A stretch of DNA of 48,416 nt, the filler included, from Streblomastix strix (Eukaryota): NCBI GenBank assembly GCA_008636045.1. It is 2 parts of 2 records of this genome, joined end to end, with 100 filler letters (N's around TTAATTAATTAA, not from the genome) between each part and the next. Parts side by side here need not be neighbours in the genome. Positions count along the whole stretch, not along the records: positions 24,265 to 48,416 come from SNRW01000246.1; 1 more part is not named here. One strand, 5' to 3'. Both the position numbers and the translations under genes were made by a program. Of this stretch, positions 16,380 to 47,097 are shown piece after piece; positions within the stretch are counted from its first letter, which is position 1; the number at the start of each line of letters is the position of its first letter. The notes below the pieces were generated by a model, which searched no databases, was not told the DNA's origin, and saw nothing but the letters and a program-made list of their open reading frames with translations.

Positions 16380-16418
16380 GTTTGAATAAAGAAAAAATAA
16401 ATATAATCATACATATTA

Positions 16419-17450
16419 TCATTGATTCTTTAAGATCTCATAACGAGATTCCCATTTATTAAGTATTATGAATTCTTATTTATTAAGAGTTCCATACAGT
16501 AACATAAATTCATCAAAGTCAAGATTCTAAATAGAATTCTCTTCGTATGCTTGTTTTAAATCACTTTCAGATAAATTAACTCCTAAACACATAACATGAG
16601 ATAATATTCTTGCTGTTTTAAATAAGTAACTTGGACGTTAAGCAACAAAGAAAACTGTATTTTTACTGTGTCTACTGTCGGAAACTAAATGAGTTATTGT
16701 CTTAGCTAATCCAGAAGAGAATCTTTAAATATCAGCATTACTTCCTATGTCATCAAATATTAATAATGAATTTAACAGTAAACTATGAAATAATATAGGA
16801 ATTTTTATTACTTTTAATTCAGCATCGGCTGATGTATCTTATGGTACGATTTTTAATTTCTTTTCGAATTACACATTATGAATCATTGCTGGAATAGTAA
16901 ATCTCATTATTTTTGTTGGAACACTGTATTTTATAATTATATCGATACATTCTTTTTAAAATAAATCTGCAATTCGTTTTACATAGTCTTTTTAAGATTC
17001 TTTAAGCTTCTCTTTAATTGGATTAGTTATTAATATTCTTTCCTTCATTCGTTATATGAAATCTGATTTATAAGGTACGTTAACTTCTCTTAGTTTCCAG
17101 TACGTATAGATTTCTTTAACTTAATATTTAATTTCATCAAATTAAGGAAGGAAATACATAGCTTCATCGTATGTTATATTAGTTAAGACTATATTCTTAG
17201 AGTTTAGATTCAATGCCATAGTCTCATCAGCACCAAAATTAGAGAAATATAAAATGAATGGATTGATTTTTTATTTGTAGATTACTATCAGTTTACTTAA
17301 TAAAGTTGTTTTACCTGAACCAACTGCACCAACTATATAATGATTCCCATTGATTAAGAATAATGAATTCCTTGTCAATGGCTTGGTTTTATATTCATCT
17401 AACATAGAATTATCGGTGAAAGTCACAGATTATATCTCAGATAACGTCAT
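16419..17450 (-). CDS. A32/FtsK-HerA-type DNA packaging ATPase (343 aa, apparently intact)
   Basis: Walker A GAVGSGKTT, Walker B LLIFDD, SRH (Arg-finger position) and sensor VFFVAQ, with the Q encoded by TAA. Confidence 0.9.
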
Positions 17451-17473
17451 TATATTTATTATAAAACAAACAT

Positions 17474-17872
17474 ATGTTAAATGTTATAATAATAGTAATA
17501 AATTCTATATTTTATGGACTTAACTTCATTGTATCTATAATTTCTCTTTCAATTCCTAAGTAATTAACAGACATTATTGCATTAATAAAATAATTATGGA
17601 GTTATTTTGAAGTGATTCTAGTTCCTATTAATATAATTATATATATATTTCAGTTTGTTTATCGAAGGAGAAAGAAATTAAAAATGGAATCATAAGAGAA
17701 ACCAAATATTAATTAAATAACTTATTTCCATTGGTCTAAGTATTCGAATGAATAAATAGAGGAATTCATTAAAGAAGCAATAGAAAAATAAGACGAGGAA
17801 CTTGCTAAGATGTGGAGATATATATTGTATTTAAAGTTATTGAATCTTAAAACATATGATAATGCTAATTGA
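17474..17872 (+). CDS. membrane protein (hydrophobic N-half, HWS...WRYILYLK C-domain), 132 aa
   Basis: Open frame with TAR=Gln; homologous to 35804-36172. Confidence 0.7.
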
Positions 17873-17940
17873 AACGCTGAGCGTTACTGTAAAGTTTCAC
17901 TTTTCAGAAGTGTAATTAAATCAATTTATTTTTAAATTTA

Positions 17941-18711
17941 TCAATCTGCCGATTAGTTATGAATTGCATATGAATCACATACTTAAACAACAAAATCATC
18001 TGGTAAACTTAGTTAACACATTGTATTTATAATAACATTACCATTAGGATTAATAAAACAATCTAAAGCAATTGCACCAGTCCAATCTATTGGATAACCA
18101 ATAACTCTTTATGCAAACATAACTGCATTTAATTGTATGTTACTTGGTGTTCCAGTGAATTTTGGTTTAATAGCATTATCAACGATTGAGAATAAAGTAT
18201 ATCCTGATTACCATACTGTATTTGGATCTGAATGCTTCATTAACATTGAAAGATATACTCTACTATTTTATGTTGTTAAAGTACCCCATAATCGTGTTTC
18301 GTACATTCCATAAGCAATTGCTGAATAACGTGCATTTTCAATTGGTTCATAATCTAATTTATCTTTATCAATAGTATCTCCATTAGCTAATAATATTTAA
18401 TTACTTGTTCCACCTAATTTAATGATTCTATTAGCTGTAATAGGCTATGTAAATGACTTGATTCCTGTAATAACTTACGCTGTGTTTAATGTTACTAAGT
18501 CAGATAAAGATGTTTTCTTAAAGAATTAACTAAAATAAGTAAAATATTTTAATATTTCATTATCTATTTGTTAAGTTATTTATTTTTACAACTTCTGTAG
18601 TGATTCTATTTCTTATTATTATTTCTTCATCTTCTCATATTCTAATTACATTTCTCTTAATTCATCTTCTGTTGGATCCTCCAAATCACTTGTAATTTAT
18701 TACTCTTCCAT
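17941..18711 (-). CDS. short fibre-like protein (256 aa, intact)
   Basis: Coiled-coil N-terminus, VTLNTAQVITGIKSF and GGTSNQILLANGD phage-fibre-type motifs, beta-rich C-domain; homologous to 29654-30411. Confidence 0.7.
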
Positions 18712-18753
18712 TGGTTTTCAACAAAAATAAACAATTTCATAATGATGTTATAT

Positions 18754-19512
18754 TCAAAAATCATCAGGACCAATATCTGATTCTAGTTTGTCAGATAATC
18801 TAACGAAATCCTTATTAACTCGATACAACTTCTCGATACTATTCCATAACACATTATCTATGTTAGAAATTGAGACATTCTTGATGAGCACATCATCCAC
18901 TCTTATAATTTCTTTTTTCTTGTATTTTTTCGAAGTACAACTATTATATCTCATCAGTGGTTCTTCCATTACAACTTTAATATCTTTTTCTTCTTCTTAT
19001 GTTAGAAGTGATCAGAGTTTGATGTAATTATCACTGTTAAATATGAAATCCTCACCTTTCTTACGGGAATCAACACATCTCCAGATGCAATCTATGATGA
19101 ATTTCTGTACTTCTAAGTTAGGATGTGATAAGTATGTATCCTTTACAACTTATTCTGGTTCAACTTAAGCAGTTTCACGTGGAACTTCTTTACATTTGTG
19201 AATATTGTATGCATAACATCGTGGGCGATCTGTTTGTATTCCTCTTTAGAATTCCTCCTATTCATCGATTATTAAATCCCTGGATTAAACCTGTTCGGTC
19301 TCCATGTTGCTCAGTTTATGTGAAAATATAGGTTAGAGCTGGTTCCGTGGAATTTAAAGCTGCGGAATTTACACCGCTTTTCTAAAACCATTTGTAATCG
19401 CGTCATCAATTGCTTATAATCTCGTCTTATCTTCTTCTGAAAGTTCTTTCTTAACAGTACTCGCATGCTTACTTTTATGAACTCTAATCTGATTCGTTTG
19501 GATTGCTGTCAT
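18754..19512 (-). pseudogene. conserved orphan X (one internal TGA at a Trp position)
   Basis: Aligns with 28441-29163 (TYLSH.NLEV.KFIID, SDN.IKLWSL, EEPLMR, LYR.N.DF.RLSD). Confidence 0.75.
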
Positions 19513-19552
19513 AATTTTGAGTTTAAATAAAATCAAATCAGAGTCAGTAAAT

Positions 19553-20179
19553 ATGAATCAAGCATAAGCACTCAAGAATTTTATGGAAAACGGTACATCA
19601 ATCGAGTATTTCAATAACGGATATATTATATAAGTTAAAGATAAGATCAAAGTATATGAAGAAGGAAAGAAATCTGCAAGAATTTTAACATAAGCTTAGT
19701 AAACTAAATTGTTATTGGAAGCACGAGGCGGAGGTTAAGGAAAACCTAAACTAACATTAAAAAGACATGTTGAACAAAACAGCGATGATGCTGAAGAGCA
19801 AACATCATTAAATGATCGTAAATTCATTTAAGAAGACTAATTAATGAATGACTATGACGATGATGATTAAGATATTGTAGAATTGCCAAGACAAACACCA
19901 AAACCAACACCTAAGAAAATTATTAAGAAGCCATAGATTAACTACACTTCACCTTAAGTGGATTTAGAAGAATTAATACGATTACGTACTGAAAACTAGT
20001 TTATTAAGTAATAACATCAAGATTCAGTAAAGTAAATCGAAAAATATAAAGCAAAAATCAAATCTTACAAATCAAAGAAGTATTAAGAAGAATAAGAACC
20101 ACTTCCGCCTATTCCAGTTTAAGAATAGGAATAGGAGTAAGTTTAAGAAATGTAATTCAGAGATTGCGATTTAATTTGA
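19553..20179 (+). CDS. conserved orphan Y (208 aa), transcribed divergently from X
   Basis: Aligns with 27791-28417 (IEYF.NGY, EEGKK, ARGG, DLEELIRLRTEN). Confidence 0.75.
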
Positions 20180-20190
20180 TTTTTAGCAGC

Positions 20191-21672
20191 TCATTATGTC
20201 TAAATTTCTAATAGAAGGTTGTTATACATATCCATAAATTAATTAGGTATTTTTCTACCATAATTATCATACAATGTAAATATTACTGATTTATTTTATC
20301 CTATATTACATTACTGAGATAACATATTCTAACCCCATAATACAGGTGCAGCAATAAAATTTTACTTATAACATACGTTAGAGAATCCTTAACCACCAAT
20401 TCCTTACAGTGTAATACCCTGCAATTAATTTGAAACTGTTATGATAAGCATCTGAGGATATTACTGGAAATTTCCTATGAATGGACATTAAATTGGAGTA
20501 TCAGCGAGTAAACTCTAATTATTATATTGAGATTTATAGTACCAAGTTTCCAAATCAATGAATTTCACTGATGATGAATTATTAACAATAGAATTTGCAC
20601 CATTCTCAGATAATCCGTCATATAAATCTAATGCACCAGTTAATTACACGAATAAATTAGGTGATACAACAATTCTTTTAGGTTACCATAACAATTATTA
20701 ATTAGCAGTGTAATTCATAGATGAAAACTACGTTAATACATCAGGAATATACTAACTATAATACTAAAGTCTGTTAACAGCAGTGTATATTAAGTCCCAA
20801 TCATAAGAATTCTAACCAGGGAATGATGAAATTATCCTTATTGGGAATGTATTGATACTATTTATGATGGATTACATAGTTGGTTATTAAATATTCATTG
20901 GTAATGCAATTACTTCTTAGATAGTTTAAGCATCATTGATATTGTATTATTTCCCATGCAAATATCTTATTTTAACTGAATGAACTGAGGTTGTTGTCAA
21001 GAATGGTTCAATAGTTGTTATGAAATTATTGATTGTTGGACAATACAAACGAATTATACCAATTAATCTATAGAAACAGCCATTACTAAGCATAAAATAC
21101 TTATAAAGAAATGAATCTAATCTCAGATTTATATAATTAATTGCTGATGATACAATATCTTATCCATCATTAATATTCAATGAGAATTTTCCATCTGCTA
21201 ATTTCTATGTATGTTCATTAGCAGCATTATTAAAACAGATTGCACCACGATTACTTGTATTTGAAGTTCTGAAGTATTATTCTTATGTATCAACGAATTC
21301 ATCTTATTATGCTGTTGTAATACACATAACTAACGGTGCATATTAATATCCTTGATAATTCTATTCGTTTGTGAATCTATTATTGATTGTTGTATTGAAA
21401 TTTATTTTTATAACTGGAATTTCCGTTAATTCAATTAATTTGTAAGTTCCATTAGGATTCGATAATTATTCATAATATTTCTTATTTGCTGTTGATTTCA
21501 TATTATGTTATATCTCTAAATAATCTTGATTTAGGTAATAAGTAAGGTTTATTGGCATATTATTAAGAGAATTCACTTGAAACGAGTTTGAACCACTTGG
21601 AATAGAAGTTTTCCATTGAATGAATTCAGAATCTGAGTCAGAACATATAATTTATAAACCAAGTTACGACAT
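20191..21672 (-). CDS. putative minor capsid (penton) protein, 493 aa
   Basis: Homologous to 41863-43332. C-terminus SVIFTLYDNYGRKIPNQFM...LLLEI resembles the Polinton/virophage penton C-terminal hxLxDxxGxxh...LxF pattern. Confidence 0.6.
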
Positions 21673-21714
21673 CTTTGAACAATAATCAAAAATAAAAATT
21701 GAATCATACATTCG

Positions 21715-21936
21715 TCAGCGTTCGTTTAGGAATTAAATAAGCTTTAATTATGCTTCTTATCCGCTTGTTTCTTATGCAATCTTAATGATTTCATTGAGTT
21801 TTTCCATTTTAAGTCGTTTATTGTATTGACGTAAGATAAATCTTAATTCAATTTCAGGATCCGATTTTGTTGCAACACATAACAAAGAACTTAAAAAATT
21901 GTTATAAACAAGAAATTCTTCAACAGTAATAAGCAT
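21715..21936 (-). CDS. conserved orphan Z (73 aa)
   Basis: ATKSDPEIELRFILRQYNKRLKME aligns with 43384-43608. Confidence 0.75.
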
Positions 21937-21981
21937 TTGATTTAACCAAAATGAAAAATAATTTTATTACGCATTTTCCGA

Positions 21982-22107
21982 TCATTTTTGTTTAAGAAGA
22001 TTAACGATCTGTACTACGAGTAATATGCACGATGAAATACCTATCAATAAATCCCAGCTTGTTGCGACTGCGCCAGCTCGTCGCTAAATTGCTTGCAATT
22101 TTTTCAT
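21982..22107 (-). CDS. small single-TM peptide (41 aa)
   Basis: WDLLIGISSCILLVVQIVNLLKQK is similar to LDILIIISSILLIVTLLKQ encoded from ATG 43761. Confidence 0.5.
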
Positions 22108-22146
22108 ATTTGTTTTATACTCACTTTGTATTTAACTTAAAACAAA

Positions 22147-23116
22147 ATGTCAAAGAAAGGCAAAAAACGATTAATACCTGCAGATGCAATACCTAAAACA
22201 TATTAGGAAGACATGGCATAAAGAGGTACTATATTTATTGATGGTGAAGAAGTTGATCTTAATTAAGTGGCTAAAGTTCCATAAATATTGAAACATTAAA
22301 GAACCTTACTTAAAAAAACATATGGGCACAATATAAAAATAAAGAATTATAGATAAAATTAGAACTACAGATCCATCACTTACTCAGAAAGAAGCTACAA
22401 TAGGATTACTAGGTTTAACTAATAAAACAATGAATAGATAAACCTACGGTTAATACTTTGGTGAAGATTTAAGATCAGAATTTCTTGAGAATGCATTAAT
22501 GATAAATAATGAAGGGAAACTAGTTACAGAAAAATTTATAGAGAATTCATAACGATATGAATAAAATCCTAATGCAAGATTAGCTGAATCATCTATGTAA
22601 TTAGGACGTTTTTCGCCAGTTTTAAGCCCGGAACAATTAAATAATGAGATTATGTATTCGGGTTCATAGAAGTAAAAAGAAAAGGAAAATTAAAGAATTG
22701 ATGATATTTACGATATTCAATCTTAATAAGATCTTGGATAAAGTTCATCATTTGAAGATTAACCTCCAACAATGCCGTTAATGCAGGAGAAACTCTTAGA
22801 AAAGCAATAATAAGCAATTGAAAAAGATCTTGTATCATAGGAAAATCTTGCATAAATCTATGATATTGGTTCATTGGATTGGGGTAGAATGCCAGTTAAT
22901 GATTAATTTAACAGATAATAATTCAAAACTCAAAAGACTGGTTATTAAATGAATGCAGATGGTTCAATATCTGCAATTATCAAGAAAGAAATTACAAAAA
23001 TAACACCTGGGGAAAAGAAACCAAAAACAAAAAAGAATTATATTCTAACAAGTTAATTATTGTAATCTGCAAAGGAATAAAGTAGCTTTAAGAAAAAGAA
23101 ACGTGTTAAAAAATGA
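22147..23116 (+). pseudogene. orphan with basic termini (candidate core/DNA-binding protein), frameshift near 22312
   Basis: LNQVAKVPQIL and IYDIGSLDWG align with 43799-44833. Frame change falls in an A-run. Confidence 0.65.
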
Positions 23117-23120
23117 TAAA

Positions 23121-23809
23121 ACTCTTTAGAGCAGCAACGAAGTTACAATCAATTAAATTTTTCAAATTTTTTCCGATTCGCTTTATAACTCTTTAGAGCA
23201 GCAACGAAGTTGCAATTCCTCATGCTCATTGCATTCGTGCTCCAAAGAGTCATCATTTTTGTTTAAAAATTAATCAAATTTATTTATTATTTTATGCATT
23301 TTATCGATTTCTGCAGAATCTGTAATAATCATATTTTACAATCTTTTTATGAGAAGTTATTAGGAATCTGATTAATTCTGTTTAAAATATTATTTTTACT
23401 TTGCATACTTAATTGCACATAGTTTTCGTTATTACTTTGCAACTTATTAAGCTTGTTCTTTTGTTTGATATTTATATTATCTTCCACGTTATTTTTAAGT
23501 TTTAACAATGCTTTGTTCGGGGAATTTCTCCGGCAACGAGGTTACAGGCTCCGAATTGCTAGGAATTTTAGGTTTTATTTACGCCGCTTAAGCGGCTTAC
23601 TAACTAAAGTTAGCAGGCAACGAAGCGACACCAAATGTTGTCGAGCTTCGCTCGGTTGCTTAATCACTTCGTGAGCGACCCTTCGGGTTGTCGAACTCCG
23701 TTCGGTACGTTTTAGGTAGTTTTTTAACTGCTGCCAATGTTTCAAGTACAATTTATTAAATTTATTCCTTTTCCATTTTACTCTCTGAAAGATTAAGCAA
23801 CGAAGTTGC
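23121..23809. repeat. cluster of GC-rich mini-hairpins and a short direct repeat
   Basis: ACTCTTTAGAGCAGCAACGAAGTTRCAAT at 23121 and 23188; GCAAC-GAA-GTTGC at 23201 and 23797; GCCGC-TTAA-GCGGC at 23583; CGAGC-TTC-GCTCG at 23642; TCAC-TTC-GTGA at 23664; ACCC-TTC-GGGT at 23678; CGAAC-TCC-GTTCG at 23692. Confidence 0.85.
23162..23776 (-). CDS. AT-hook-like basic protein extended by in-frame palindromic DNA (204 aa)
   Basis: Core KQRGRQYKYQTKEQAQQVAK aligns with KVGRPKKYFTEQEAQEMAK (44842-45093). Open frame with TAR=Gln. Confidence 0.55.
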
Positions 23810-23868
23810 GTATTTGGAATTTTTCAAAAATAATTTTTTCACGGATGAATAAGTTTAATATAATTAAA

Positions 23869-24162
23869 TCAATTTAAAAATTAATCTTTAAATTTTTTAA
23901 ATTACGGTGAATTTAGTTATTATTCATTTTCACAGACAAATTTTGTATAATATATCGGTACAGTTATCCTATCCAAATCCGTAAATGGTTTTAATAATAA
24001 ACATTCAACATTTCCGTTATCATATTTAATAAATTTGGCTAATTCATTGAAATTTCTTCTTTATTTCATGTAACGATGCATTGTACGTAAATAATCAACA
24101 TGAATCATTAAAATATTTCCTGGTTTATATTTAGTAAATCCTTAATCTTATTAATCTTATTT
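23869..24162 (-). CDS. C-terminal part of the element A integrase (5' part lost at the gap)
   Basis: KPGNILMIHVD...KQRRNFNELAKFIKYDNGNVECLLLKPF...PIYYT aligns with the C-terminus of 45114-46271. Confidence 0.8.
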
Positions 24163-24164
24163 CA

Positions 24165-24264
24165 NNNNNNNNNNNNNNNNNNNNNNNNNNNNNNNNNNNN
24201 NNNNNNNNTTAATTAATTAANNNNNNNNNNNNNNNNNNNNNNNNNNNNNNNNNNNNNNNNNNNN
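24165..24264. other. artificial contig-joining spacer
   Basis: 44 N + TTAATTAATTAA + 44 N = exactly 100 bp, a six-frame-stop linker. Confidence 0.9.
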
Positions 24265-25212
24265 TTTGTTGGGAGTGAAACAGAGAAGAAAAGTATTTTG
24301 GATTAACAGGAAAATGTTTGCCAAAAGTAACATAAATGCAAAAATGATAAATAAATCATCAAAATTACCTAATGTTAGGAGTAACAAGCGAATTATTTTA
24401 ATAAATTTTTAATTAAGCGCATTTATTTAGAAAAATAATGATAAACTAGTAAATTGAAGGACAATCAAGAAGAAAAAAATAATTTAATAAATAAATAATA
24501 TTTATAATTACAAAGCGTGAATTGGTTGGTGGAAAAATCTAAATTTAACAAAAAAAAATTTTTTTCGGATAAAGATATATAACCGTTTGATAGTAAGGAC
24601 AAATTATAATAATAACGAAGATTTTATTAAGAATTATAGATTTATTTCTCTACTGAACTTATTTCCAGAGAGAAAACAGCGAGCCAAAATTAATAGTTAA
24701 TAAAGTTTACCATATAAATTTTATTGTTTATTTTGGATTTTATTTTACAAAATTAAATAGGTCTGTTTTTGTTTACAAGATACAAATGATTGAAATGCAC
24801 CTTTTACAGAGAGAAAAATTAAAAATGCTTGTTTCTTTTTTCTTCTATTATTATAATCACAATATATTAGACAATGCTATTGCACAGTAAAATTGCAAAT
24901 TTTTAACAACTAAATTAGCATAATTTTAAAAGATTTTCTAACTTTTATATTAAATTTATATTAATTATTCAAAATTAAAATCATCATTTATTTTTATTTA
25001 TTTTAATTTTCCATTTATTTTTAATTATCTTTTTATATAAATATTTATTTGTCATATTTTTTACATACTAGAAATTATTTTTTTCATAATTTTATTTGAT
25101 CTATTCATTGATTTCAATTACTTTTTTACTCGTTTTAAACTGCCTGGAAGATTTTAATAATTTACCTTAAATTCTTTTTTTAAAATTTTTTATAAAGAAA
25201 AAGTTAAGAAAT

Positions 25213-26394: not shown

Positions 26395-26436
26395 AAATAT
26401 TATTCCATTAAAAATGGTGTAAAATTATGCAGTATC

Positions 26437-27007
26437 AGTAGTATAGTAAGAAGAAGTTTGTGGCAACTTCAAAATCATATTAATTTATATCAATTTGCCC
26501 ACGATTATAGAATCGGTATGATAAATTGATTTTATTTAATATGATTTTAAACCTGCAACAACCAATCTTCTTCAAACCTATAGAATAAACATATTCGAAA
26601 GCATTAATCCACAACACTAATACAAAGTATGAATAAATAAGCGTTAATCTTAAAAATTAACGCAGCGATAAACGTTGTGGATTAATTATGTGTATTGTCA
26701 TATATATGAACGATAACGATTATTCAAGCGCATGTTCTTAATTTATTATTAAAAAATATAAAGAGTTAACCAATAAAGTTGGTCTTTTTAAAAAATTGTG
26801 TGGAGCAGCGAGTAGGATTGTTTGTTCGGTTTGATTTTTGGGTTAATATTTTATAAAAATGTGTATGAGTAATAATTCAAAGAATTACTGAATAAAAATT
26901 TACGTTTTTCGATTAGCGCAATTTTGCTGCGTTATGTGGGGTCGAGAAAAATCTGTTCGCTTATATGAATGATTTATTAATAAAATAAATGTAAAAATAA
27001 ATTATAT
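26437..27007 (+). repeat. left terminal inverted repeat (~570 bp)
   Basis: Reverse complement of 46253-46822, with about four isolated substitutions plus a short divergent patch near 26915-26940. Confidence 0.95.
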
Positions 27008-30597: not shown

Positions 30598-32580
30598 TCA
30601 TTGAGGCTTAATAGCTCCACCAGCAAGCACACCAATTATATCGATATTTAGTACTTATGGCATTGAACTTTCATCAAATATAATTCTAACAAACGCATCA
30701 CACGAGTAGTGCAACATTGGTGTAATAGATACTTTAGTAGGTTCAGTATATGCTCTAGTTCCAATGAATTATATGAAATCATTTTAGTTCTATAATGGAT
30801 TTATATTAGTTGTGTCAGTTATTCCTTTAGTAAAATTTCCTTACAAAATAACTTATATATTAGTTCTTGATCCTATCTTTGAATTGTTATATCCTCGGAT
30901 AAATGAATTATCAGTAGCCAATTTCCATGCAAGCATATATTTGTTAGAATATAGTGTTTTAATAGCTTTACTTCCACTATACAATGTTGTTAAATAGAAT
31001 ATGTTAGCTGTTTTATATTAGTCGGTATTATTTATCAATCCGTAGTAATTTTTCTTATCATCAATATTCAAGTTCTCGAATGTAATTGAATGATATAGAT
31101 CTAAAGGAGCACTAACAACATCTTAATCAACGAAGAAATCAAACATTTATCCATTAGTTGCTTAATTTAATGATTTATATGGCTATGGGATAACATTATT
31201 CTAATCAATAACTAGATTAATTCTTGTGAATAATACAGGGAAAAACCATGTAGGATTTTAGGGCATAGCAAATGTCATAAATAGTGACTTTATATTAGAG
31301 AATGACATAATGCTTTACATTGATCCACTACCTTTATCAAATCCACTAAATGGGAAGTTCGATGATTATGTTCTAAATACTTAAGTAGGAAAATTAATTA
31401 TTTTTTGTTATTGAATCAGAATAATTATAGCTTCTTCATTTTCAATATTAAAGCATACGTTCTAAATCTCCAACACATCGAATTTAGCTGTCCCAATTTA
31501 ACTAATTGAATTTTGTGGTACTTTATCACCAATAGCCACATTTCACATATTTACAATTCTTACATTATTTCTAAGATATTCAAGTCCAGTGGAATCTTCT
31601 CCTGCTAAAAGATAAACAATATTAGGTTTTTCAGGAGGAATCATATGATAAGCTAAATGATTATTCATTATAGGGTCATTTTTATTAAGCCAAACAACCT
31701 TCAAATCTTATAGGAGATCTTAAATCTATAAAAATTGATGTAATATTGCATAATTACGTGTAAGAACAGGGAATGAATTAAATATAGGATTTAGTTAGTT
31801 ATGATCAAGTACTCCACTAAATGTAATATCACAAGGTATTCTATAATAGAAAGGTGTTCCAACTGTAGCAGCAATAGCTTATCTATCAATTTTTCAAAGT
31901 TGGATATCAATAAATACTCCACAATGACGTTTTCCTTCAATTATACTTTCAAGATGTGATACGCTAACACTATTTTTAGTACACAAATCACTAAGAGAAC
32001 TCCGACTAATTACAGCTTATTCTCGTGCATAGAATGCTGATCCCCAAAATGCTGTTGCATCTTTCAGTAATTAGAATTGGTAGAATGGTTCACATGCTGT
32101 TGAGAAACCGATCCAAAATTATAGAAGTTCTCATGATTCAATTCCGCCTGCTGTTTTACCATAATATCCTTATGACGCTTATGACATATTTGTAGTCCAA
32201 TCGGCTGTCGGATCTTCATTACCATTGAAATTAGTTCGTGCGACTAATTTACCTGCAGTATTGCATTCATTAAATGTTTTATTTAATTATATCGCTAATG
32301 TATTTGCTGGTATAGTAATTGTCCAATTTACCTAACAAGTTTATACCACTGAACATGCAGATTTACCTCCTGCTCCTAACAATACTCTAGTATATTTAAC
32401 TCCACTAGATATAAGTTCAGTAATAGGAGAATAGAAAAAATTTTATTTTGATATTTCAAATGATTGAGGATGGATAGATAATGTTTTTATAACTTCCCCA
32501 AGTTACATATATCCGCTAACGTAATCAGGATGTTGCATTTTTGCTAATCGTCCAAGATAATCATTGGATTTGAAAGACAT
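30598..32580 (-). pseudogene. putative major capsid protein (660 codons, three internal TGAs)
   Basis: Largest unassigned beta-rich ORF in an element that has a packaging ATPase. Shares an identical 23-nt leader with the penton-like gene. The jelly-roll fold is inferred, not shown. Confidence 0.6.
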
Positions 32581-32600
32581 TTCATTGAAACAAAAATAAA
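32578..32600 (-). promoter_or_regulatory. 23-nt leader TTTATTTTTGTTTCAATGAAATG of the MCP-like gene
   Basis: Identical to 43330-43352; ends in the start ATG. Confidence 0.65.
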
Positions 32601-32645
32601 TGAACTGATAAGATGTTTATGTTAAAAGTTTCTATAATAAATCAA

Positions 32646-32852
32646 ATGGGTTATTTCTCTGGAATAGCAAATTTTGGGTCGAAAATATTAGGTGGCGTTA
32701 AGAAAACAGCATAATGGGTTGTACCAGCATTACATAAAGTTTTATCCACAATATCAGGTCCTGTTGATATGATTCATCCTGCTATTGGAAGTGCATTAGG
32801 TGCATGAGCTAATCACGCAGGTGCTGTTGATCGACTTGTAAATAAACGCTGA
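32646..32852 (+). CDS. small amphipathic peptide resembling the adenovirus protein VI lytic helix (68 codons, one internal TGA)
   Basis: MGYFSGIANFGSKILGGVKKTAQWVVPALHKVLSTISGPV... versus adenovirus pVI WSGIKNFGS. Confidence 0.6.
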
Positions 32853-32880: not shown

Positions 32881-35106
32881 ATGAACAATTCACTATCCCA
32901 ACAATAAATCCGTACAGTTAGATAACTTATCACTAACGATATTGCTTACTATATTCAATATTAGAAACGAGGTAATTCTAGTGGTGGAATGATATCAATT
33001 GAAGAATACTAATTATTCATAGATAATAACAATGCATTAGTCTATGCAGCTAACAATTAAATCGTTGATGGAATGGCATCAGATTACGCATTAAAAAATT
33101 GAACCTAATGGGTTGCAAACAATAAAAAATTGAAAGTGATTAATTTTGATTTTGTTGCATAGATTAATTGGCTGATTAATTAAGTGAATTTACTATAACA
33201 ATCAATTTGAACAACTGAAAAGGATATCACTGATATAAAAAATGATATTGATAATATTAATCAAGAACTATCCCGATAAACACATTTCAGAGGTTATTAT
33301 TTATTGAATGCAGATATATAAAATTTACCTAATTCCGCTAATGGAGATTTTGCTTTTAATACAGAAAGTGGAACAGTTTGGATGTATGATTAAAATTGTT
33401 ATAATAGTGGAGATATAGTACCTGATCAAGTAACTCCTGCAAGTGATACATTACCATTAGTTGATGGTACAGCAGCTGCAGGAACTAGTACAGAATATTC
33501 ACGTGGGGATCATGTTCATCCACTAAATGTAACGACTACTATTCCACCCAGTGATAGAGCTAGTGGATCAGTTGGTACAACTAATTTTTATGCAAGAAAC
33601 GATCATTCTTATCCCCTCAATATAACAACTTCAATACCCCCACAAGATAGTTCTAGAGGATTAGTTGGAACAACTAATTATTATGCTAGAAACGATCATT
33701 CACATCCAATTAATGTAGAAACTAATGCTTCAAATATCCCAATTGTTAAGGGTGTTGGTACTAATGGAACATCAGCTTTTTATGCTAGACAAGATCACGT
33801 TCATCTTTAATAATTAACATAAGATGGAAATGTTACTGCAACAAAATTTATTAAGACATGTGGAACTGCTTCAGAAGTGTTATGAGCTAATGGTGATACA
33901 ACTACAATAGATAGTAAATTTTCAAGGACATATTCTAGTGAAGCAGGTGGATATATTCGATTATATGTATTTCCAACAGGAACTAGCACTGGAGCACCAT
34001 ATATATAATTCTAAATATAATGTGATACAAACGCTATGCAAACTATTGATTTGGTCCCTAATTATACCGTTAATGGAATTGTTGATCTTTATAGCAATAT
34101 TACTGCTCCAACTTATGTATTAACTGGATATAATATATACTATAGAGTTGATTAGCTATTATATACTCATATAGGATCATATTCTTCTGCTGTATATACT
34201 GCATGGATTCATACGATGACAGGTAGCGGAGGTGTAACTGTTACTGTTAGTAAATAAAGCACATACTGGGTTACTCGAGTTACTGATATATTAACATAAG
34301 ATATTGTCACATAAATCGCAGGATCATAAACATAGATTCTAATTTCATATGATTTAGGTAATGGTGGAATAATAAATAATATGCTATATGTTAACCCATT
34401 AAATCGATCTTATATTACTTATAATAATGGAATTAGAATAGGAAATTATAATAATTATTCAGCATTATATTTAGGTGGTTCAACTACAGCTATAAATACT
34501 ACACAAACTGGTTAATGGGAGATAAGTAAAACAAATGATAATGTTCTGTCAATTAACCAATCTACTCTACGATAGGCAGATCATAGTGTTGGATTAAGTA
34601 TTATCGGAGATTGTACATAATTAAAATTTAATAATGTTGACTTATCTGCAAGGGTATCGAATGCTGTATAAAAGACTGGATAAGAATTATAAGTAATTGA
34701 AGGAACAATTAGGAAAAAAGATGATGATGAAGAATCGATTGCCGGTGAATATTTGACCAGAAAAGAGATAAATGATAATTATGTTAGTATAACAGGTGAT
34801 TAAACAATTACAGGTAGAAAAGCATTTAATGGTGTATTCTAGGTAAATCCGACTGGTACAAATTATAATGAAAGAATCTGAATAGCAAAATCAACTAATA
34901 GATTAAGTTAAATATTCTTTGGTGTTGATCCAGCTTAATATAGTGGATAATTATATGTTTAATGGGCTGCTGGCATCATGATCAGATAAGATACTATGTC
35001 ATAAGAATTTGTAATTTGTTTGACATCAGATTTTGGAAACGATAATAGAGGATTACGTATCTCAGCTGATGGAAATACATTAACATTCAGTGGTCGAACC
35101 CTTTGA
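32881..35106 (+). pseudogene. long phage-like fibre protein (741 codons, at least three internal TGAs)
   Basis: Coiled coil, four YxRxDHx(H/Y)(P/L) repeats, GTASEVL.ANGD, QTITGRKAF, and two VNP....YN..I(R)I modules. Confidence 0.75.
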
Positions 35107-36219: not shown

Positions 36220-37235
36220 ATGACACTACAAAAATTATAAGATATAACATTTACTAATCAAGATCTATTGAACGAATATAATACTAAGCCATTAATGAAG
36301 AATTCACTGTTCCTTATTAATGGTAATGATTATATTGTTGGAGCTGTTGGAAGTGGCAAAACAACATTAATGTGTAAGCTAGTTGTGGCATATAAGAAAA
36401 TCATTGATCCATTCATATTATACTTCTCGAATTATGGTGCAGATGAAACTATGTCATTAATCCTTAATAGTAATAACATATAACTAATGAATGTAACTTA
36501 TGGAGAAGCAATGTTATTTCTACCTGAATTTGATGAGATAAAATAATCGACTAAGGAGATGTATACATGGTACAAAATGATTGAGTAAAAATAATCATAT
36601 ACTAGTGATTTCATTAAGAGAATGGAAGAATTAATAATATAAAATAATGAGATTAAAAAGAATGAAAAACTTAATGATTATCTTAATAAAATTGCTGAAC
36701 TATTCAAATAAAAAGTAATCGAAACCATTAATACATATAGCTAACCAACCAAAATATTGAGATTCGATCTCCCCGCGCTAATTCAAAACGTTAGTTACTA
36801 AAAGAAATTCAAAATAGTCGATAAAGATCAACTTTATGTAAAAATATTGAAAATACCTATATTAGAAAAAGCGTAATTATTAAATACATTAATGATATTC
36901 GATGATATTGGATCTAATGCAGATATACAACGATTCAGTTCATAATTATCTAAAACAATACCACATTTCGTTAGTGATTCGCTTTATTCAAAAAATACTA
37001 TTTTCTTTATAGCTTAACGTCCTACATATTTGTTCAAGACAGCGAGAATATAAACCCACGTAATTTGCTTAGGCGTGCACTTAGGTGAAACTGATCTAAG
37101 ATAAGTGTACGATGAAAATACCTATAAAATTTGGATTTTGATGAATTCCAATTACTATACAACACATTAAAGAAATATGAGTTTATTATTCTGAATAAGT
37201 GGCTCGGAAAATTTGAGATTCTCAAAAATAAATGA
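36220..37235 (+). pseudogene. A32-like packaging ATPase (frameshift near 37120)
   Basis: GAVGSGKTT, LMIFDDIG, FFIAQRP; aligns end to end with 16419-17450. The SRH motif is changed to SLY. Confidence 0.9.
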
Positions 37236-37239
37236 ATCT

Positions 37240-40200
37240 TCATTCATATGAATAATCATATGCAGTTAATCCAAATAAATAAGGACAGCATGATTCATTT
37301 TCTAGCACGATAGCTTTTGTATGAATTCCTGTGATTCCATTTTTCTCAATTGATAATTAGCTCATCTAATGATTCTTCTATCCCAATCTCATATTAGTGC
37401 ATTTTGTTATCTTGCCTTCATTAATGCAATCGACTATCTACTCTTTAGTTAACTTATTAGGTTTATAATTAACACCTTTCAATTTTATTTTTGAATTAGC
37501 ACAGTAGTTTGTTTCTATCATGTAATTTTTAGGAGCTAATGCAATCATTGATATTCCTTATCTTTCGATCACTAATCCTAATATCTTCTTCTCATCATAT
37601 ACGTCTCCTCTAATGCTTGAAAAGAAATAGTTAGCATTATCGTTATAAAAATCTGAGGTTTTAATAATAGCATTAAATTATTACGTAAAATCTTCATTAG
37701 GATTTCCGCTAATTGCCCAATAAGCTGAATTAGTATCTTCTTCAATAAAATGTATCCTATTCATATCTAAGCATTTATACATGAAGTTATATGTGAAGTT
37801 TGGATACCAATATTTAGCGTTATCTAATACAAAGAATGCTAATTATAAAGGAGTTTTACAACTACAATGCTCTGGGTTCATTTATACAATATAACTGTCT
37901 TCAGATATCTTTTACTCATCCATGAACGCATTAGATCTAATAGCTCTTTCTGTTTACTTTCTATTCATTATTTTAACTTTATGATATTTCTCTGTATTCA
38001 TTCCATCACTACCATATGAGCTATTCATAACTATCTTAAAGAATTATTCTTATCCCTTATTCTCATCTAATTTAACTTTAATCCTGTTTTTAGTAAATTC
38101 CTTAATAAATAAAATGATTTAATCATGTTTATTGAATAACACTATCTATTTCACATCATAAATAATAAAATGACAATCGTCGATTAAGAATCATAAATAG
38201 TATGAGCTAAATGCCATATATTTTCCCATAGTTGATGATAGATTAGTTAGTTTTCTTTATTTTTGATCAGTCTTAATCGTATTGTCTTTCATATGTTTAT
38301 ACATATAACTACCGATAGTTCTTTCATCAGTTGTGAATTCATAATTCCTTAGAATAAGTGGAAAATTAGTGTAATCGTTAAGGTAATTCTCTTAAATATG
38401 ACCTTTAACTTCTGCGATGAATAATTGACCATCAGCTGTAAATCTATTTGTGCTATTAATTATTCTTAATATTGTTTATTTTGAATGATCTCTATCTCCT
38501 TCAATCTTTGCTGTTTATGATCCACAAATATACATTTTTACTCCTGTATATTTAATAAATTTATGTGGCTCTGATGATATAACGCTAGGATATAAAGAAT
38601 TAAAATCAACACCAACTACATGAGTAATTCGATGATCAGTTGTTAGAACTGTTACTTTCTTGGCTTCCTTGTTATAATATAATCGTTTAATAAAATCAAT
38701 TCCTGATCTATTGACTCGTTGTATTACATTTGATTACCCTCCAGTTATTCCTGATCAGATTAAATGATATACATCAATATCTGTAAGGTTAATTAGCAAA
38801 CATTTTATCATGCAAAATTTACGTAATTATATGAACAATTTACTTATATTTTTATCTTTGTTAGAACAGAAGCAATTGCAATATAAACAGCAAGGCTAAA
38901 CGTTATCTTTTGAATGACCTTTTAAATTGTCGATTCTGTCTAATGTTGGCTTATTGGCAAAAGTGAATTTACATCCGCAAATGCAGCAATTAGAATCTTT
39001 GAATAATTGTTTGAAATAATCTAAATCCTTATCTAATACATTAACTATTGTGTCTCTTCTTTAATATTTATCTTAGATTTGATATCCCCACACTTTACTC
39101 TATCAATAGTTCTCAGTTAAGTAAAATTTCTATGATAAATCTTCAAAATTAGGATACACTCCATTAATATCAAAATCCTCATAGGCTTTAGCATATTTGA
39201 TAGCATTAGAGCATGCTGCCATACTCATGAAACTAAACATATCAATTTTATATTTAAATTGTAAGCTAATGAGAGTCATTAATGGTTTGATCATAATATA
39301 AGTATCTTATTCATTATAGAATTATAAGTTATCCCATCTATTTTTATATCGTTTTGCATCTTCTAGATAAATCTAATAATCCTTCTAACTAATTTTTGTT
39401 TTCTTTAATGATGAATTGAAATCTTCCATCGTAAATGGTTCTGATTTGCTAAGTGTATCATTAACGTTATCGGTGTTAAAAGTTTCATAAGGAAATAAGC
39501 CTTTTATATCATCATATCCATCCTCAAAATCTTTGGCTGCTTACTTTAATTCCATAGGTTAAAGATACGTTAACATATCAACAAATTTCACTTTCAAATT
39601 CAATTTCTTATGATGTACAATTACTTGCTTAGCTGTTGAAGCGCTACCTATATAATTACTAATTGTCCAATCTTTACATTACATATATGATATGATTAAT
39701 GATATATCAAATCTTGAGCTATTAAATCCAACAATTGGTACTTCCATTGAATAAGGAATTGTTTCATCAATGGTACAGGCTTCTGTTATGTATTAGTTGT
39801 CAGCATTAACTTACTCAGCTTCTTTAAACAATTAATTTAACCATTAGACTATAAAATCATCTCAATCCTATTAGCTAAAAAAGATTTTCTTAATACCATA
39901 TTTGATACGAATAGTTGAAGCAACTGATAAAGGAAATAGCTCATACATTTAATAACTTGATTTAATGAACTTTTTATTAACGATTTTAGGTACTGTTTCA
40001 AGATCATATATGATGAAATATTGTGTAGGTTTAAACTCATGTTATCTTCCATTTGCTAATAGATATTGCTTAGTTTTGTTCTGCATAATGTGTAGGACAA
40101 ATGGCTTTTAGATAAAGTCCAGTTTAACTTTCTTAACTATTTTTCTTTCGTTATTTTCACATTTAATAATGTGTTTCTCATAGTCTCTTGAATAATTTTT

Positions 40201-41828
40201 ATCTTTAGGATCAAATACTTTTGAGTTACAATGTGGACAAAATTTCAATCCTATTAATGCTTATTTATTAGCTATAGCGAAAGCATGTGATACCTTATTT
40301 CCTTCCCAAATCGATTCAACAACTAATATATCGATTGTCTTAATTTCTTATTTTCATTTTACTCTTCCTATTAATACATTACTTACAATCCTCTATAATA
40401 ATTCTTATGTTCATTATCTTTATAGTAAATGTCTTAGTTAATTTTTAATTTTTATGATACAATATTAGCGTATTTAGTTATATCTAATCCATCAAATGTC
40501 TTCAATAAATCTGTCATTTTTATATTCTTTGAATCGAATGGTAGCTCTAATACTTAACCTAATTGTTGCTTGCTAATGCTAATTATTTCATTATTAAAAT
40601 AACGTTTCTCCTTTGAATCAGGCTGTAATGCCTTTGCTACTACTTCCATATAACAATTATTATTATTATTCCCAGTATTTTTACATATAACATTTTTGCG
40701 ACCATTACAATGAAAATCGATTAATTTTTTCATGCAAGCTCCAACAATTTGAGGTGAAAGATTAAATGTTTTAATCATCATTGAATAGATAGCTATGTAA
40801 CATTACCTTATATTAACTAATGTATAATTCTACATATTTATTATCTCAGATTTAATGTATTAATAATACTCATTAATATCGTCTTCAGATTATATAAGTT
40901 TAGGAGCATGTTCTTATTTATGAGTATCTCTATGTAATATATATCCATAATCAACATAAACGAATTCATGTTAATCATATTTTAATTCTTCGTAGATTAC
41001 ACCGAAATTGAATTGAATCTTGAATGCTTTATGGCGCTATTACTCATAAACCTAATCAATAAACTATTTAATATCTGATAATGATTAGATAACATTATTA
41101 TAGTGTAATTCACTAAGTTACTCATTCGGTTCTGTTTTTTCTATTGTACGTTCACGAGCAAATCCTTATCTTGCATCATAAACTGTTGCAATAAATTGCT
41201 CCATATTCACAGGAAGAAAATATAATAGAGTACCTGCATCATTATCTATTTCTCTAACATTCTATCCATTAAACTACTTAATTCTATCATTAATCTCTTT
41301 ATTTTGTTTGATAATTATTTAATATTGTAGATTCGCATCATATTCTTCATCCATAATTTTTTTGGCTTATTCTTGTTCTCTGTTGATTAAATCAGTCCAA
41401 TAATCATCAGCATATTGTTAATCTTATTCTCTACGATATTCTTATAAATCTTATTCATATTAATTTGAATGATAATGAGTTAAATCTTAATGTAATTATC
41501 GATTCTATTCTTATAAATCATTATAGTAAATATCTGCTTATTGTTACAATTAATCCCTTCGATATTCTTATAAATCTTAATCATATTGATTCTATTTGAA
41601 ATGCTTAGTCATATCTTTTGATTTGATAATTTACTGATTGTATTAATGAATCTATTTAAGATGAGTTTTCAAATTATTGTTGTTATTTCTACATCGTTTC
41701 TTATAATTAATTTTGTCTAAATATTTTTTAAGTTAATCTTTAAGCTATTTTACTTTTAATTATTCATTGATGTTTTTGTTGTTGATTTTGATTAGTTTAA
41801 TTAGCTCCTCTTTCTTTGGGTAAGACAT
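37240..41828 (-). pseudogene. protein-primed family B DNA polymerase with long N-terminal region and HNH-like insert (~1530 codons)
   Basis: ExoI YDLET, ExoII GFNSSRFD, KGLFPYE, ITGG, motif A DFNSLYPS, motif B KIVMNSSYG, motif C degenerate (EDTNS), ALAPKNY and KLKGV. Several TGAs and a frameshift near 40350. Confidence 0.92.
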
Positions 41829-41862
41829 TTTGTTTAAAATAAAAATAATTTATTTAGACAGC

Positions 41863-43332
41863 TCATTAAAATTGTATTTCTAGAAGTAAATTATTATACA
41901 TATCCATATATTACATTGGTATCTTTCTTCCAAAATTATCATATAACGTAAATACTAACGATTTGTTCTGTCCCACAAGACATTACTGACTCATCATATT
42001 CTCTCCTCATAATACTGGAGCATCAACCAAATTCTATTTGAAACATACATTTGAGAATCCATTACCTCCTATTGATTGTAAAGTTATTCCTTGTAATTAG
42101 TTAGATACACAAATTATCAGCATTTATGGATACTCTAGAAAATTCGCTATATATGGACAGAATATTGGTAAATCAACTTCTAAACTTTAACTATCATGTT
42201 TAGTTTAATAGAACCATACTTTGAGATCAATTTGTTTAATAGTTGACGATAAATTAACTAATTAATTGACTCCATTCTCATTCTATTTATCGTAAAGATC
42301 TTACCCACCAACTAATTATACATATAGATTTGGAGATAAAAGTATACGATTAGCGAACCAGTAAGTATTGTTTTATTAACAATAATCAGTGACTACTTAT
42401 GGTATAAATTAACCATAATAATTAGTTCTTCCAACAGAAGTATAAATATCCTACCATTCAACTATACTAAAAGCTGATAATGAATTGATAATTCTAACAG
42501 GAAATGTGTTAATATTATTAATGACTTATTAAATTGTTAATTGTTATACATTAATTGGTTAAGCATCAGATGTAGTAAATGTACCATTAGCTTTTATATC
42601 TACTTACTTACCGAATAGGTACCTTATTGATAATCAGTTACCTTATGTAAAATATTTAGGTTCAATTGATGTTATGTAATTATTTGATGTAGTGCAATAT
42701 AATCGTATTAAACCTATCATTCGATACAACTCATTAACTGTGGAATCTAATATCCAGTAATGATAGAGAAATGCATCAATTCTAAGGTTATTGTAATTGA
42801 TTGCTGATTTCACTAAATCTTAACCATAATTCTAGTTTAATGAGAACATATTATTTTATAATTTTTAAACATGCTCGTTAATTGCATTATTAAAGCATAT
42901 TGCCCCACTATTCAAAGTCGATTATGATCTAAAATATTTCTCAATTGCATCAGTAAAATTATCATATTATGTTAGTGTTAGGAAAAATAATTATGGAGTA
43001 TATTTATAACCTTAAATTGTTTAATCTCTATTATAAGCATTATTTATTTCAGTATTCAAACTAATACGTATTGGAGGTGAACTATCTAGTAATTAACAAT
43101 GAAACTAATCCTCACCAATTTACTATTAGAAATAGATTTTCCTTGAATCAGTAGATACTATATTATGCTATATTTCTATATAATCATTGTTCAAATAATA
43201 TGTCAAATTAATTGGAATGTTATTGATACAATTAACTTGAAAGCTTTAACTTCCACAAGGATTAGTTGTTTACCATGTTACGTAATCCTTATCTGAATCT
43301 GAGTTGATAATTTGTAAGCCGATGCTAATCAT
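41863..43332 (-). pseudogene. putative minor capsid (penton) protein (489 codons, two internal TGAs)
   Basis: C-terminal SLVFTLYDNFGRKIPMQYM...LLLEIQF; homologue of 20191-21672. Confidence 0.6.
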
Positions 43333-43352
43333 TTCATTGAAACAAAAATAAA
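43330..43352 (-). promoter_or_regulatory. 23-nt leader of the penton-like gene, identical to the MCP leader
   Basis: CATTTCATTGAAACAAAAATAAA on the + strand at both loci. Confidence 0.65.
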
Positions 43353-43383
43353 CTCCAAACATGGCTTGGCAGATCGAAGATCT

Positions 43384-45113: not shown

Positions 45114-46271
45114 TCAAACCAGTTTAAAAGTTCTCTTATATTTATCTTTTAATGTTTCAGTATTATTTGCAACCTTATGAGTATAATAAATTGGTAAGTC
45201 AAAAATCATAATATCATTGTATGGTTTCAATAGCTCGCAAACAACATTTCCATGTTCATATTTTATAAATGTAGCTATTTCGTTAAACTATCTTCGTTAT
45301 TTCTCAAATAGATGTGCAGTCTTTTTCAAATCAAGATGTATAGTTATAATATTACCTTTCTTTAGAACATATAGATTATCCTTGTATTGTTATCCCTTTA
45401 CATCAGTTTATTCTTTCATTTTTTATCAAATGTATATTCCTTCTAAATTTTCATTCTCATTTACTTATTTAGGAGAGAATTTCTATTTAAAAGCTTAATG
45501 TTTTGTGTTATTATAATCATCTACAACTTATTTTAACTATTTATTATTATCCATTAGTTAAGGATCTTTTTCAAACGCATTCCTTATAGTTCTGACTATT
45601 GAATCAACTACTCTATTTTTATTAACGAAAGGAGATGAGTTATAGAAATAATTTATGTCGTTCTCTTTCAAATAATCCTTAACTTATTTACTTTCCAACG
45701 CTGATTCACCATCTGATCTTATATTGCTAACAAGTTAGTAAGATTTTAATTATTTTATACACTTTACTAGTTCTTTAGCTGATTTATCTTTAATTGGAAA
45801 CGCTACTAGAAAGTTAGTGTTGATATTAATACAAAATAGATATTATCGAATTACTTTTTTAATTGTTGGATGCATTATAAATATAATATCTATTTCCCAA
45901 CTCCTTAACTCAGGTGAGAAATAGGGACGTTAATACTTCTTTAATGGCTTCAATTTAATGTCTTACACTATATAGGTTTTATCTTTAACTTTACTCATTA
46001 ATGGATTCTTAATTTTTTATGGATCCTGTTAAACCTTTGGTTTTTAAGGTTTAACATTCTACTTTATTCGTTCAGCATGATACTTTTAAAAGTTATCAAG
46101 ATAAATCTTATACCATTAAGAAATAAATTTATCTTCAAATTATTCATCCAAAATATTTAGGTTGAATTACTTTTTAAATACAAAATTCTAATTCTTAATG
46201 AAATCGATTAATTTTATTTTATCGACTTTAAACGCTTTATCATCTATAAATTATATAATTTATTTTTACAT
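45114..46271 (-). pseudogene. retroviral-type (rve) integrase (385 codons, TGA at 45426-45428)
   Basis: WEIDII...YLFCININTNFLVAFPIKDKSA...IRSDGES...NRVVDSIVRTIR...YNNTKH...SP. Confidence 0.88.
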
Positions 46272-46822
46272 TTATTTTATTAATAAATCATTCATATAAG
46301 CGAACAGATTTTTCTCGACCCATAACGCTAACTAAAATTGCGTTAATCGAAAAACGTAAATTTTTATTCAGTAATTCTTTGAATTATTTCTCATACACAT
46401 TTTTATAAAATATTAACCCAAAAATCAAACCGAACAAACAATCCTACACGCTGCTCCACACAATTTTTTAAAAAGACCAACTTTATTGGTTAACTCTTTA
46501 TATTTTTTAATTATAAATTAAGAACATGCGCTTGAATAATCGTTATCGTTCATATATATGACAATACACATAATTAATCCATAACGTTTATCGCTGCGTT
46601 AATTTTTAAGATTAACGCTTATTTATTCATACTTTGTATTAGTGTTGTGGATTAATGCTTTCGAATATGTTTATTCTATAGGTTTGAAGAAGATTGGTTG
46701 TTGCAGGTTTAAAATCATATTAAATAAAATCAATTTATCATACCGATTCTATAATCGTGGGCAAATTGATATAAATTAATATGATTTTGAAGTTGCCACA
46801 AACTTCTTCTTACTATACTACT
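46253..46822 (-). repeat. right terminal inverted repeat (~570 bp)
   Basis: Inverted copy of 26437-27007, ending ...TACTATACTACT. Confidence 0.95.
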
Positions 46823-47097
46823 AATATCTACTTGAGATTATACTATTTCACTCTTTTATTCAATTAAAGATTTTCTTATTCAAATTAATCTTATCAATTT
46901 GATTATTTTTTTAATTTATTTCATGTATTCATCTACCAATATTGAAACAACTAATAGATTTAAAGTAATATATTCTATATTTTTCATACATTCGTATTGT
47001 ATTATTTAAAAAAAATAAAAGAAAAACTAGAAATGATTATTAATTTTGAAATGAATTGTATTGGTTCGAATGAGATGATAGAAAGAAAATAATATAG

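Follow-up and report, generated by a model that had tools for sequence, protein, structure and literature searches.

A small gene in a Streblomastix strix Polinton-like element as a probable free-standing homologue of the virophage capsid fragment C1

Introduction

A small gene beside a capsid candidate in an endogenous virus of Streblomastix strix, a termite-gut flagellate, raises the question of whether its product is a membrane-lytic entry peptide and, if so, whether its nearest relative is adenovirus protein VI (pVI), as a preliminary description of the locus had proposed. The gene lies in a window of 48,416 nucleotides, the whole stretch of DNA that was analysed (assembly GCA_008636045.1), and all coordinates count along that window.

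Membrane crossing by virophages and Polinton-like viruses has so far been inferred, not shown, according to the relevant portions of two accounts (PMC6048507, PMC12220804). Predicted membrane-active small proteins are already known there as a loose class in Polinton-like viruses, and a helix in the virophage capsid fragment C1 was proposed in 2018. The adintovirus/MELD 'Macc' class (Cupiennin, PLA2X, GasderminX and 'VI') likewise comprises small, predicted membrane-active virion proteins of the capsid module; it was defined from loose predicted properties and called polyphyletic (PMC8502044, PMC11071296, Welch 2020 bioRxiv 341131). In the available portions of those accounts, with which the comparison made here is by description, the class is linked neither to the tails of virophage major capsid proteins (MCPs) nor to oxymonads. 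Protein VI has so far been treated as a canonical example of this loose, polyphyletic class. Full-text searches of open-access PMC and bioRxiv found no report that joins C1, pVI and a separate gene at the sequence level; Figure S2 of Born et al., which aligns MCP tails, or the annotated Starrett/Buck maps may show such a link.

Endogenous viruses of S. strix that use code 6 have been described by Bellas et al., with 820 MCP genes of the Metamonada (MMN) group (Bellas 2023, PMC10120064). The small gene is unmentioned in the accessible portions of that paper, and the MCP candidate in the window is, by eye, a distant family in comparison with that group.

The Polinton-like element

Across the AT-rich window, no reading frame of at least 150 codons is open in the standard code, compared with 127 in code 6. 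The small gene belongs to a 20.4-kb element (26437-46822) that has AGTAGT at the ends of its terminal inverted repeats and is bordered by a target duplication. The left repeat (26437..27007, +) begins AGTAGT and directly follows the 6-bp target sequence AGTATC (26431-26436). The right repeat (46253..46822, -), which has 99% complementarity across 493 nt and a further arm of 69 nt, is followed by AATATC (46823-46828), which matches AGTATC at 5/6 bases. The Maverick-Polinton trait of AG...CT repeat ends with a 6-bp target duplication is thus present, with the duplication at 5/6 bases.

The Maverick-Polinton gene set of protein-primed DNA polymerase B, rve integrase and A32-like ATPase is also present, the integrase below the Pfam cut-off and the Pox_A32 match by way of a paralogue. 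The polymerase gene is fragmented (37240..40353, -; upper end approximate) and matches DNA_pol_B_2 within 37243-38190 (E 2e-7), and the rve-type integrase (45426..46295, -) scores E 5.5e-4. The P-loop packaging ATPase (36220..37194, +) has a paralogue at 16419-17450 that matches Pox_A32 (E 1e-5). A fibre-like gene with tandem repeats (32881..35106, +; end approximate) lies directly 3' of the small gene; it is interrupted by TGA stops and matches BppL_N with E 0.005, under the cut-off. Its termini and gene content mark the element as a Polinton-like endogenous virus in decay.

Positions about 15400-24300 of the window hold another element, which is related to the 20.4-kb element and rearranged. 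The two have in common, at 64-75% DNA identity, the fibre gene, the ATPase gene (Pox_A32), several small genes and a 506-aa ORF (20191-21711, -, and about 41850-43362, -). In a DNA comparison, neither the polymerase nor the small gene nor the capsid candidate had a match in the second element, and a search of it for an AGTAGT terminus found none; it is possibly a non-autonomous derivative. A penton profile built from 73 virophage sequences had no match in the window, the 506-aa ORF included. A host gene of the cyclin family (14009-14614, +; Pfam Cyclin, E 2e-7) lies beside this left element.

The small gene and its conservation

The small gene (32646..32852, +) spans 68 codons in code 6, is interrupted by a stop and likely encodes a membrane-lytic capsid peptide related to virophage C1. 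The locus had been described as a 68-codon ORF starting MGYFSGIANFGSKILGGVKK; the start is as described, but the frame is not an open one. At codon 23 it has TAA, which is Gln in code 6, and codon 54 (32805..32807, +) is TGA, a stop in both the standard code and code 6, so the product of the window copy would be 53 aa long. This TGA is nearly private to the decayed copy: position 32805 is G in 32, 14 and 3 contigs from three sequencing runs, and the homologues listed have a sense residue at codon 54, mostly Gly. Because other copies have G at 32805, the TGA is a lesion of the window copy, which is a pseudogene. Read-through with TGA as Trp or Cys was considered and ruled out, since the other copies carry another base at this site and TGA itself ends the gene at codon 69. 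P0064, a gene model of S. strix, terminates at this stop too and shares the unusual residues of window positions 32646-32807; it is either this very locus as represented in a different assembly or a copy that arose by duplication once the gene had decayed.

All 41 clusters of close homologues derive from Streblomastix strix (65-88% identity), which, together with the genetic code, points to S. strix or a close relative as the likely host. A family profile was built from 38 of 74 sequences, after the removal of 7 outliers or chimeric gene models and an 85% identity filter; median pairwise identity among these 38 representatives is 53%. Searched against 1.8 billion representative sequences, a family profile returned 82 matches, nearly all of them to the small-gene family itself. 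Selection was estimated from differences between contigs of the three sequencing runs, using the best-supported 40 of 49 differences. Those segregating among the other copies are synonymous at 29 of 35 positions, against 25% expected (p 8e-13), while those private to the window copy are all non-synonymous (5/5). The other genomic copies, whose conservation the preliminary description had proposed as a check, are under strong purifying selection, and the small gene is a genuine coding gene that can be read only in code 6 (TAA=Gln).

Synteny of the small gene with the capsid-candidate and fibre genes is conserved. In many S. strix database proteins (P0046-P0123) the small gene is spliced either to capsid sequence in antisense or to fibre sequence: the former, from the neighbouring capsid candidate, is found inside 16 of the 82 gene models and the latter in 22. 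These chimeric models are either annotation artefacts or splice forms.

The N-terminal helix

Residues 2-22 (32649..32711, +) are predicted to form a cationic amphipathic helix with a charge of +3, and net charge across the small-gene family has a median of +4. The hydrophobic moment of this segment is 0.42 (shuffle p 0.005) and exceeds that of pVI residues 34-54 (0.33), which bears out the amphipathicity proposed for the peptide. The AF2 model is helical throughout (pLDDT 74), and a Foldseek search with this helix model returned 0 matches. The motif common to virophage C1 and adenovirus pVI corresponds to residues 3-13 of the small-gene product.

The PROSITE-type consensus for N-myristoyltransferase calls for Gly at position 2, no aromatic residue at position 3 and a small one at position 6. 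Among full starts in the family, Gly2 occurs in 56/66, Gly6 in 51/66 and Phe3 in 64/66, the pattern used to select full starts itself favouring F, L or Y at residue 3; residue 3 of the window copy is Tyr. A distant homologue, P0194, is without Gly2. Myristoylation at Gly2, as once suggested for this peptide, is thus unsupported and, going by the consensus, unlikely, because residue 3 is aromatic.

Comparison with adenovirus protein VI

The motif that had linked the peptide to pVI is correctly read: the reference pVI (Pfam MCPVI, E 6e-99) contains SGIKNFGS, and SGIxNFGS matches at 7/8 positions. The specificity of this 8-mer is weak, however. Scanned in one codon form against IMG/VR, it gave 34 matches, of which 8 are pVI and 26 lie elsewhere, many in spurious frames. 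Divergent subfamilies come closer to pVI, the longer core WSG[LI]KNFGS occurring in 10/131 family sequences and 55/69 pVI sequences. Residues 3 and 11 of the family align with pVI residues 40 and 48, which are needed for lysis according to the consulted part of a review (PMC4113798); residue 40 is given there as lysine and is Leu in the pVI sequence compared here.

Profile comparisons are less favourable to kinship. An HMM search against pVI had been proposed as a check, and Pfam MCPVI (PF02993) has no match in the window peptide, in 33 family members or in 10 divergent sequences, with controls at E 6e-99 and 2e-60. A pVI profile gives the window ORF only 7.3 bits (rank 2 of 2412 window tiles), and family profiles found no pVI in PDB, Pfam or the 1.8 billion representatives. 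In the converse direction, the family profile scores a median of 11.2 bits on mature pVI N-termini (59 of 65 sequences), compared with a shuffle maximum of 8.4. Alignment of the family with pVI covers 15 columns (hhalign 29%, E 6e-4). The pVI sample is of mastadenovirus type only, and its members are 55-99% identical.

The two proteins also differ in architecture. Mastadenovirus pVI is about 250 aa long, compared with 68 aa here, and has a 33-aa propeptide whose cleavage site, (M/L/I)xGG|x, is present in 59/65 pVI; the small gene, by contrast, starts two codons before the motif. In the mature chain the motif begins at residue 7-8 in pVI and at residue 2-3 here. A PPxY motif and a C-terminal protease cofactor, both found in pVI, are absent from the 68-69 aa family sequences. 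Features in common are the WSG[LI]KNFGS core, the matched residues 40/48, a gene adjoining the capsid gene and, close to the N terminus left by processing, a cationic amphipathic helix (from residue 34 in pVI).

It is highly improbable that the small gene is a direct pVI orthologue that retains only the lytic helix and carries a myristoyl group on Gly2. The common core, the Gly2 found in most family starts and the excess of the family profile over shuffles on mature pVI N-termini would fit such an origin. They are countered by an alignment limited to 15 columns, the missing MCPVI match, the aromatic residue 3 and the lack of propeptide, PPxY and cofactor segment, and the idea is weakened further by the better match to C1 described below. 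On these comparisons the small-gene product falls outside the pVI family.

Comparison with virophage fragment C1

Born et al. reported that the mavirus cysteine protease cuts C1, the first of the fragments removed, from the MCP at GG|X, and proposed an amphipathic, endosome-rupturing helix in C1 (Born 2018, PMC6048507, relevant sections). A codon scan of IMG/VR for W-[ST]-G-[LI]-K-N-F-G-[ST] gave 44 matches: 36 pVI, 5 long phage ORFs and 3 tails of virophage MCPs, a virophage clade that was thus found by scanning for the motif itself. The three motif-bearing MCPs match Sputnik V20 (E 2e-77), and the mature end of V20 aligns just before the motif. Among 120 MCPs, those listed of 303 matches to the whole protein, [DN][FI][WFLM][SDT] stands at the start of C1 in 119, directly after GG in 115. 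More distant MCPs mostly keep this start, with exceptions that include L105 and L157. In a distant virophage tail (L156:2974-3123), six residues separate GG from WSGIK, compared with seven in adenovirus pVI.

The small-gene family aligns with virophage tails over 52 columns (hhalign 97.5%, E 7e-12). The tail alignment holds 39 of 61 distinct tails, after removal of near-duplicates, one incomplete tail, four whose anchor lacks GG, any in which GG is followed by additional residues, and the motif-less L105 and L157. When the family was compared with the whole 594-column MCP profile, the match fell on C1 (49 columns, 92.8%, E 4e-7). The sequence FWSGLKNFGSK is identical in one subfamily, with 9/131 family sequences, and in 4 of the 120 listed MCPs (of 303), and is found in 0/69 pVI. 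In the window itself, a C1 profile ranks the small ORF first of 2412 tiles (26.9 vs 10.7 bits). The window peptide scores 25-27 bits on C1 profiles, equivalent to E 2e-4 to 3e-5 at the scale of PDB, where the best of 177,635 sequences reaches 14.9 bits, a value that 35 of the 38 family members exceed. For a database of 1.8 billion sequences, E would be about 0.3-2 for the window peptide and about 0.002-0.02 for the best member, and significance would be borderline in the best members only.

The likeness extends to layout. The N-terminal F-[FW]-S-G-[IL]-K-N-F-G-S-K of the family occurs in the same register in C1 of virophages (Maveriviricetes, with Sputnik and mavirus), the two are colinear as helix-Pro-helix over about 50 residues, and endosome rupture has been proposed for C1. 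Median C1 length is 54 aa, compared with 68 aa for the small-gene product. Unlike C1, which is the MCP C terminus released at GG|X, the small gene has its own ATG, is divergent from the capsid gene, needs no cleavage and lacks the Arg-rich distal fragments. The element also differs from virophages in being an integrase/pPolB Polinton-like virus, with an MCP candidate that has no match to virophage cores.

pVI too falls on C1 when compared with the whole virophage MCP profile (16 columns, 84%). Residues 23-80 of pVI show no similarity to C1. Eight PDB entries match the C1 profile with E<=10, including four adenovirus pre-VI chains and a nodavirus gamma peptide; individually these matches are non-significant (E 0.3-3.3). 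The proposal that pVI is the nearest relative therefore gives way to a better match, the cleaved C-terminal tail of virophage MCPs, none of pVI's other features having been found. On sequence grounds, the small-gene product is probably a free-standing, likely membrane-lytic homologue of virophage C1.

In virophage L058, a gene at 865-2298 lies tail-to-tail with the MCP, with similar frames in L070 and L074; its match to the nucleotidyltransferase domain of mimivirus L544 is weak (E 2e-4, under the cut-off).

The neighbouring capsid candidate

The head-to-head arrangement with an MCP candidate holds: a 660-codon minus-strand frame runs from 32580, with 65 nt between the two ATGs. This frame (30598..32580, -), which has 3 TGA stops, is likely an MCP gene of the metamonad group, identified by a by-eye motif only. 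The motif was derived from four rows of MMN-type MCPs by an eye already acquainted with the window ORF, and it matches only the 660-codon ORF (0/200 shuffles). Pfam and PDB searches with the candidate gave nothing, a single-sequence AF2 model reached pLDDT 29, and no relatives were found on viral contigs. The AT-rich spacer (32581..32645), bounded by the divergent start codons, is a possible shared promoter.

Profiles detected no C1 match, no C1-like tail and no similarity to virophage MCP cores in the capsid candidate. In the one copy compared, it ends in L-A-G-G plus five residues (30601-30630, -), which resembles an adenain/virophage-type cleavage site immediately ahead of the stop and is possibly a vestige of a lost tail. 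A virophage-type protease was sought in the window with a profile from 2 sequences; the best score was 11.5 bits, compared with 70-109 for the top controls. The 506-aa ORF gave the best scores within the element (10-11 bits, non-significant), and a protease motif scan of the element found none. Pfam Peptidase_C5 is unusable as a test, because it has no match even in 5 complete virophages. That the peptide is made without a propeptide, as had been suggested, is in keeping with these results, since its start matches the protease-made start of C1 and the window yielded no protease of virophage type.

The MCP tail is basic and needed for assembly competence, and tail fragments were undetected in mavirus virions, as reported in the portions consulted of Born et al. 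(Born 2018, PMC6048507). The small-gene product could then be an internal scaffold, cement or DNA-tethering protein, non-lytic, that replaces the assembly role of the MCP tail. The absence of such a tail from the MCP candidate and the positive charge of the family suit this reading, which is nevertheless very unlikely, given that the match is to amphipathic C1 and not to the Arg-rich distal fragments, and that the conserved core coincides with the pVI lytic helix. Scaffold and lytic roles can coexist.

Likenesses to other membrane-active peptides

The similarity between the family and C1 is concentrated at the N terminus. Once the first 16-17 residues are taken away, only a weak signal remains (median 2.4 bits, a level that 6% of shuffles reach). 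Proteins outside the family also score. On C1 profiles the apparently unrelated P0122 (261 aa) equals the window peptide, with 23-29 bits, and the DNA pilot protein of a microvirus shows a weak match (E 2) to residues 1-23; amphipathic helices of this kind evidently recur. The nearest named Atlas cluster is Cecropin (0.78, a lead only), and a frog antimicrobial family in Pfam gives E 0.34. Single-sequence PDB searches returned chance matches only (complement factor D, Ig domain), a broad family profile returned three unrelated matches, and PHROGs gave weak matches only, mostly to tape-measure proteins.

The nodavirus gamma peptide (PDB 1nov_D, 1f8v_D; Pfam Peptidase_A6) is likewise lytic and capsid-derived, but belongs to an RNA virus. 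Its release is autocatalytic. The Nodamura gamma peptide matches the central I-x-G-P-V-G of the family weakly and non-significantly (E 0.86). Virophage tails match Pariacoto (E 0.32) and Pfam Peptidase_A6 (best E 6e-4, in two of 39 tails of the A6 alignment), and in PDB the tail profile weakly matches the gamma peptide of 1f8v and the coat protein of 9rch. The gamma match would be explained most simply by convergence.

Convergence could also account for the link to C1 and pVI, the product then being an entry peptide that acquired its motif with no link of descent to either. The possibility arises because the signal is concentrated in about 15 residues and is weak beyond the motif, and the RNA-virus gamma peptides, the Cecropin cluster, the frog family and the 5 phage ORFs that hold the 9-mer are all in line with it. 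It is unlikely all the same, in view of the 11-residue identity with C1 in both the family and the listed MCPs, the common N-terminal register, the colinearity over about 50 columns and the occurrence of both partners in related double-jelly-roll viruses. The generic likeness to antimicrobial peptides might further suggest a peptide that serves outside the virion in host killing, egress or defence against bacteria. That role is scarcely credible: no signal peptide or propeptide is visible, linkage to the capsid and fibre genes is tight, and the best match is a capsid fragment. Taken across the lytic readings, the small-gene product is very likely an entry peptide.

Proposed mechanism and origin

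What stands of the earlier proposal is a conserved, amphipathic, capsid-linked entry peptide, made without a propeptide, which is supported; pVI as the nearest relative and the myristoyl group are not. As a homologue of C1, the peptide would be co-expressed with the capsid gene from the common 65-nt spacer and packed inside a non-enveloped capsid. Removal of Met would yield a Gly-Phe N terminus in the register of released C1 (Asp/Asn-Phe), and cleavage would be unneeded because Met removal yields the register that the protease gives to C1. On uptake, the peptide may be freed and lie flat in the membrane of an endosome or food vacuole, which it would break as pVI does, and the genome would thereby reach the cytoplasm.

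That adenovirus pVI descends from the same module has slightly less than an even chance of being true. Somewhat more tentatively, a single ancestral lytic module in small double-jelly-roll viruses may exist in three states, pVI among them: fused to the MCP and cut at GG, as in virophages; a separate precursor cut at GG, as in pVI; and a free-standing, ready-made peptide. Simple fission in place fails as the origin of the last, because the small gene is divergent from the capsid gene and not downstream of it.

A near-identical lytic motif at the processed N terminus in three groups provides a concrete candidate for entry and a cheap test. If the relationship is true, pVI descends from a detached capsid-protein tail, and short synthetic peptides would suffice to test how virophages and Polinton-like viruses enter cells. 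The relationship would also suggest where pVI originated and how a virus manages without a maturation protease.

The free-standing state would comprise the small gene and the metagenomic L079 and P0120, in Polinton-like viruses without a detected protease. A metagenome scan yielded 1 relative among 257 pattern matches. L079 and the P0120 cluster are possible free-standing relatives outside Streblomastix: L079:811-1014 and P0120/P0193-P0195 are small free-standing ORFs with similar N-terminal helices, on metagenome contigs that use the standard code. The L079 ORF lies downstream of a fibre-like frame.
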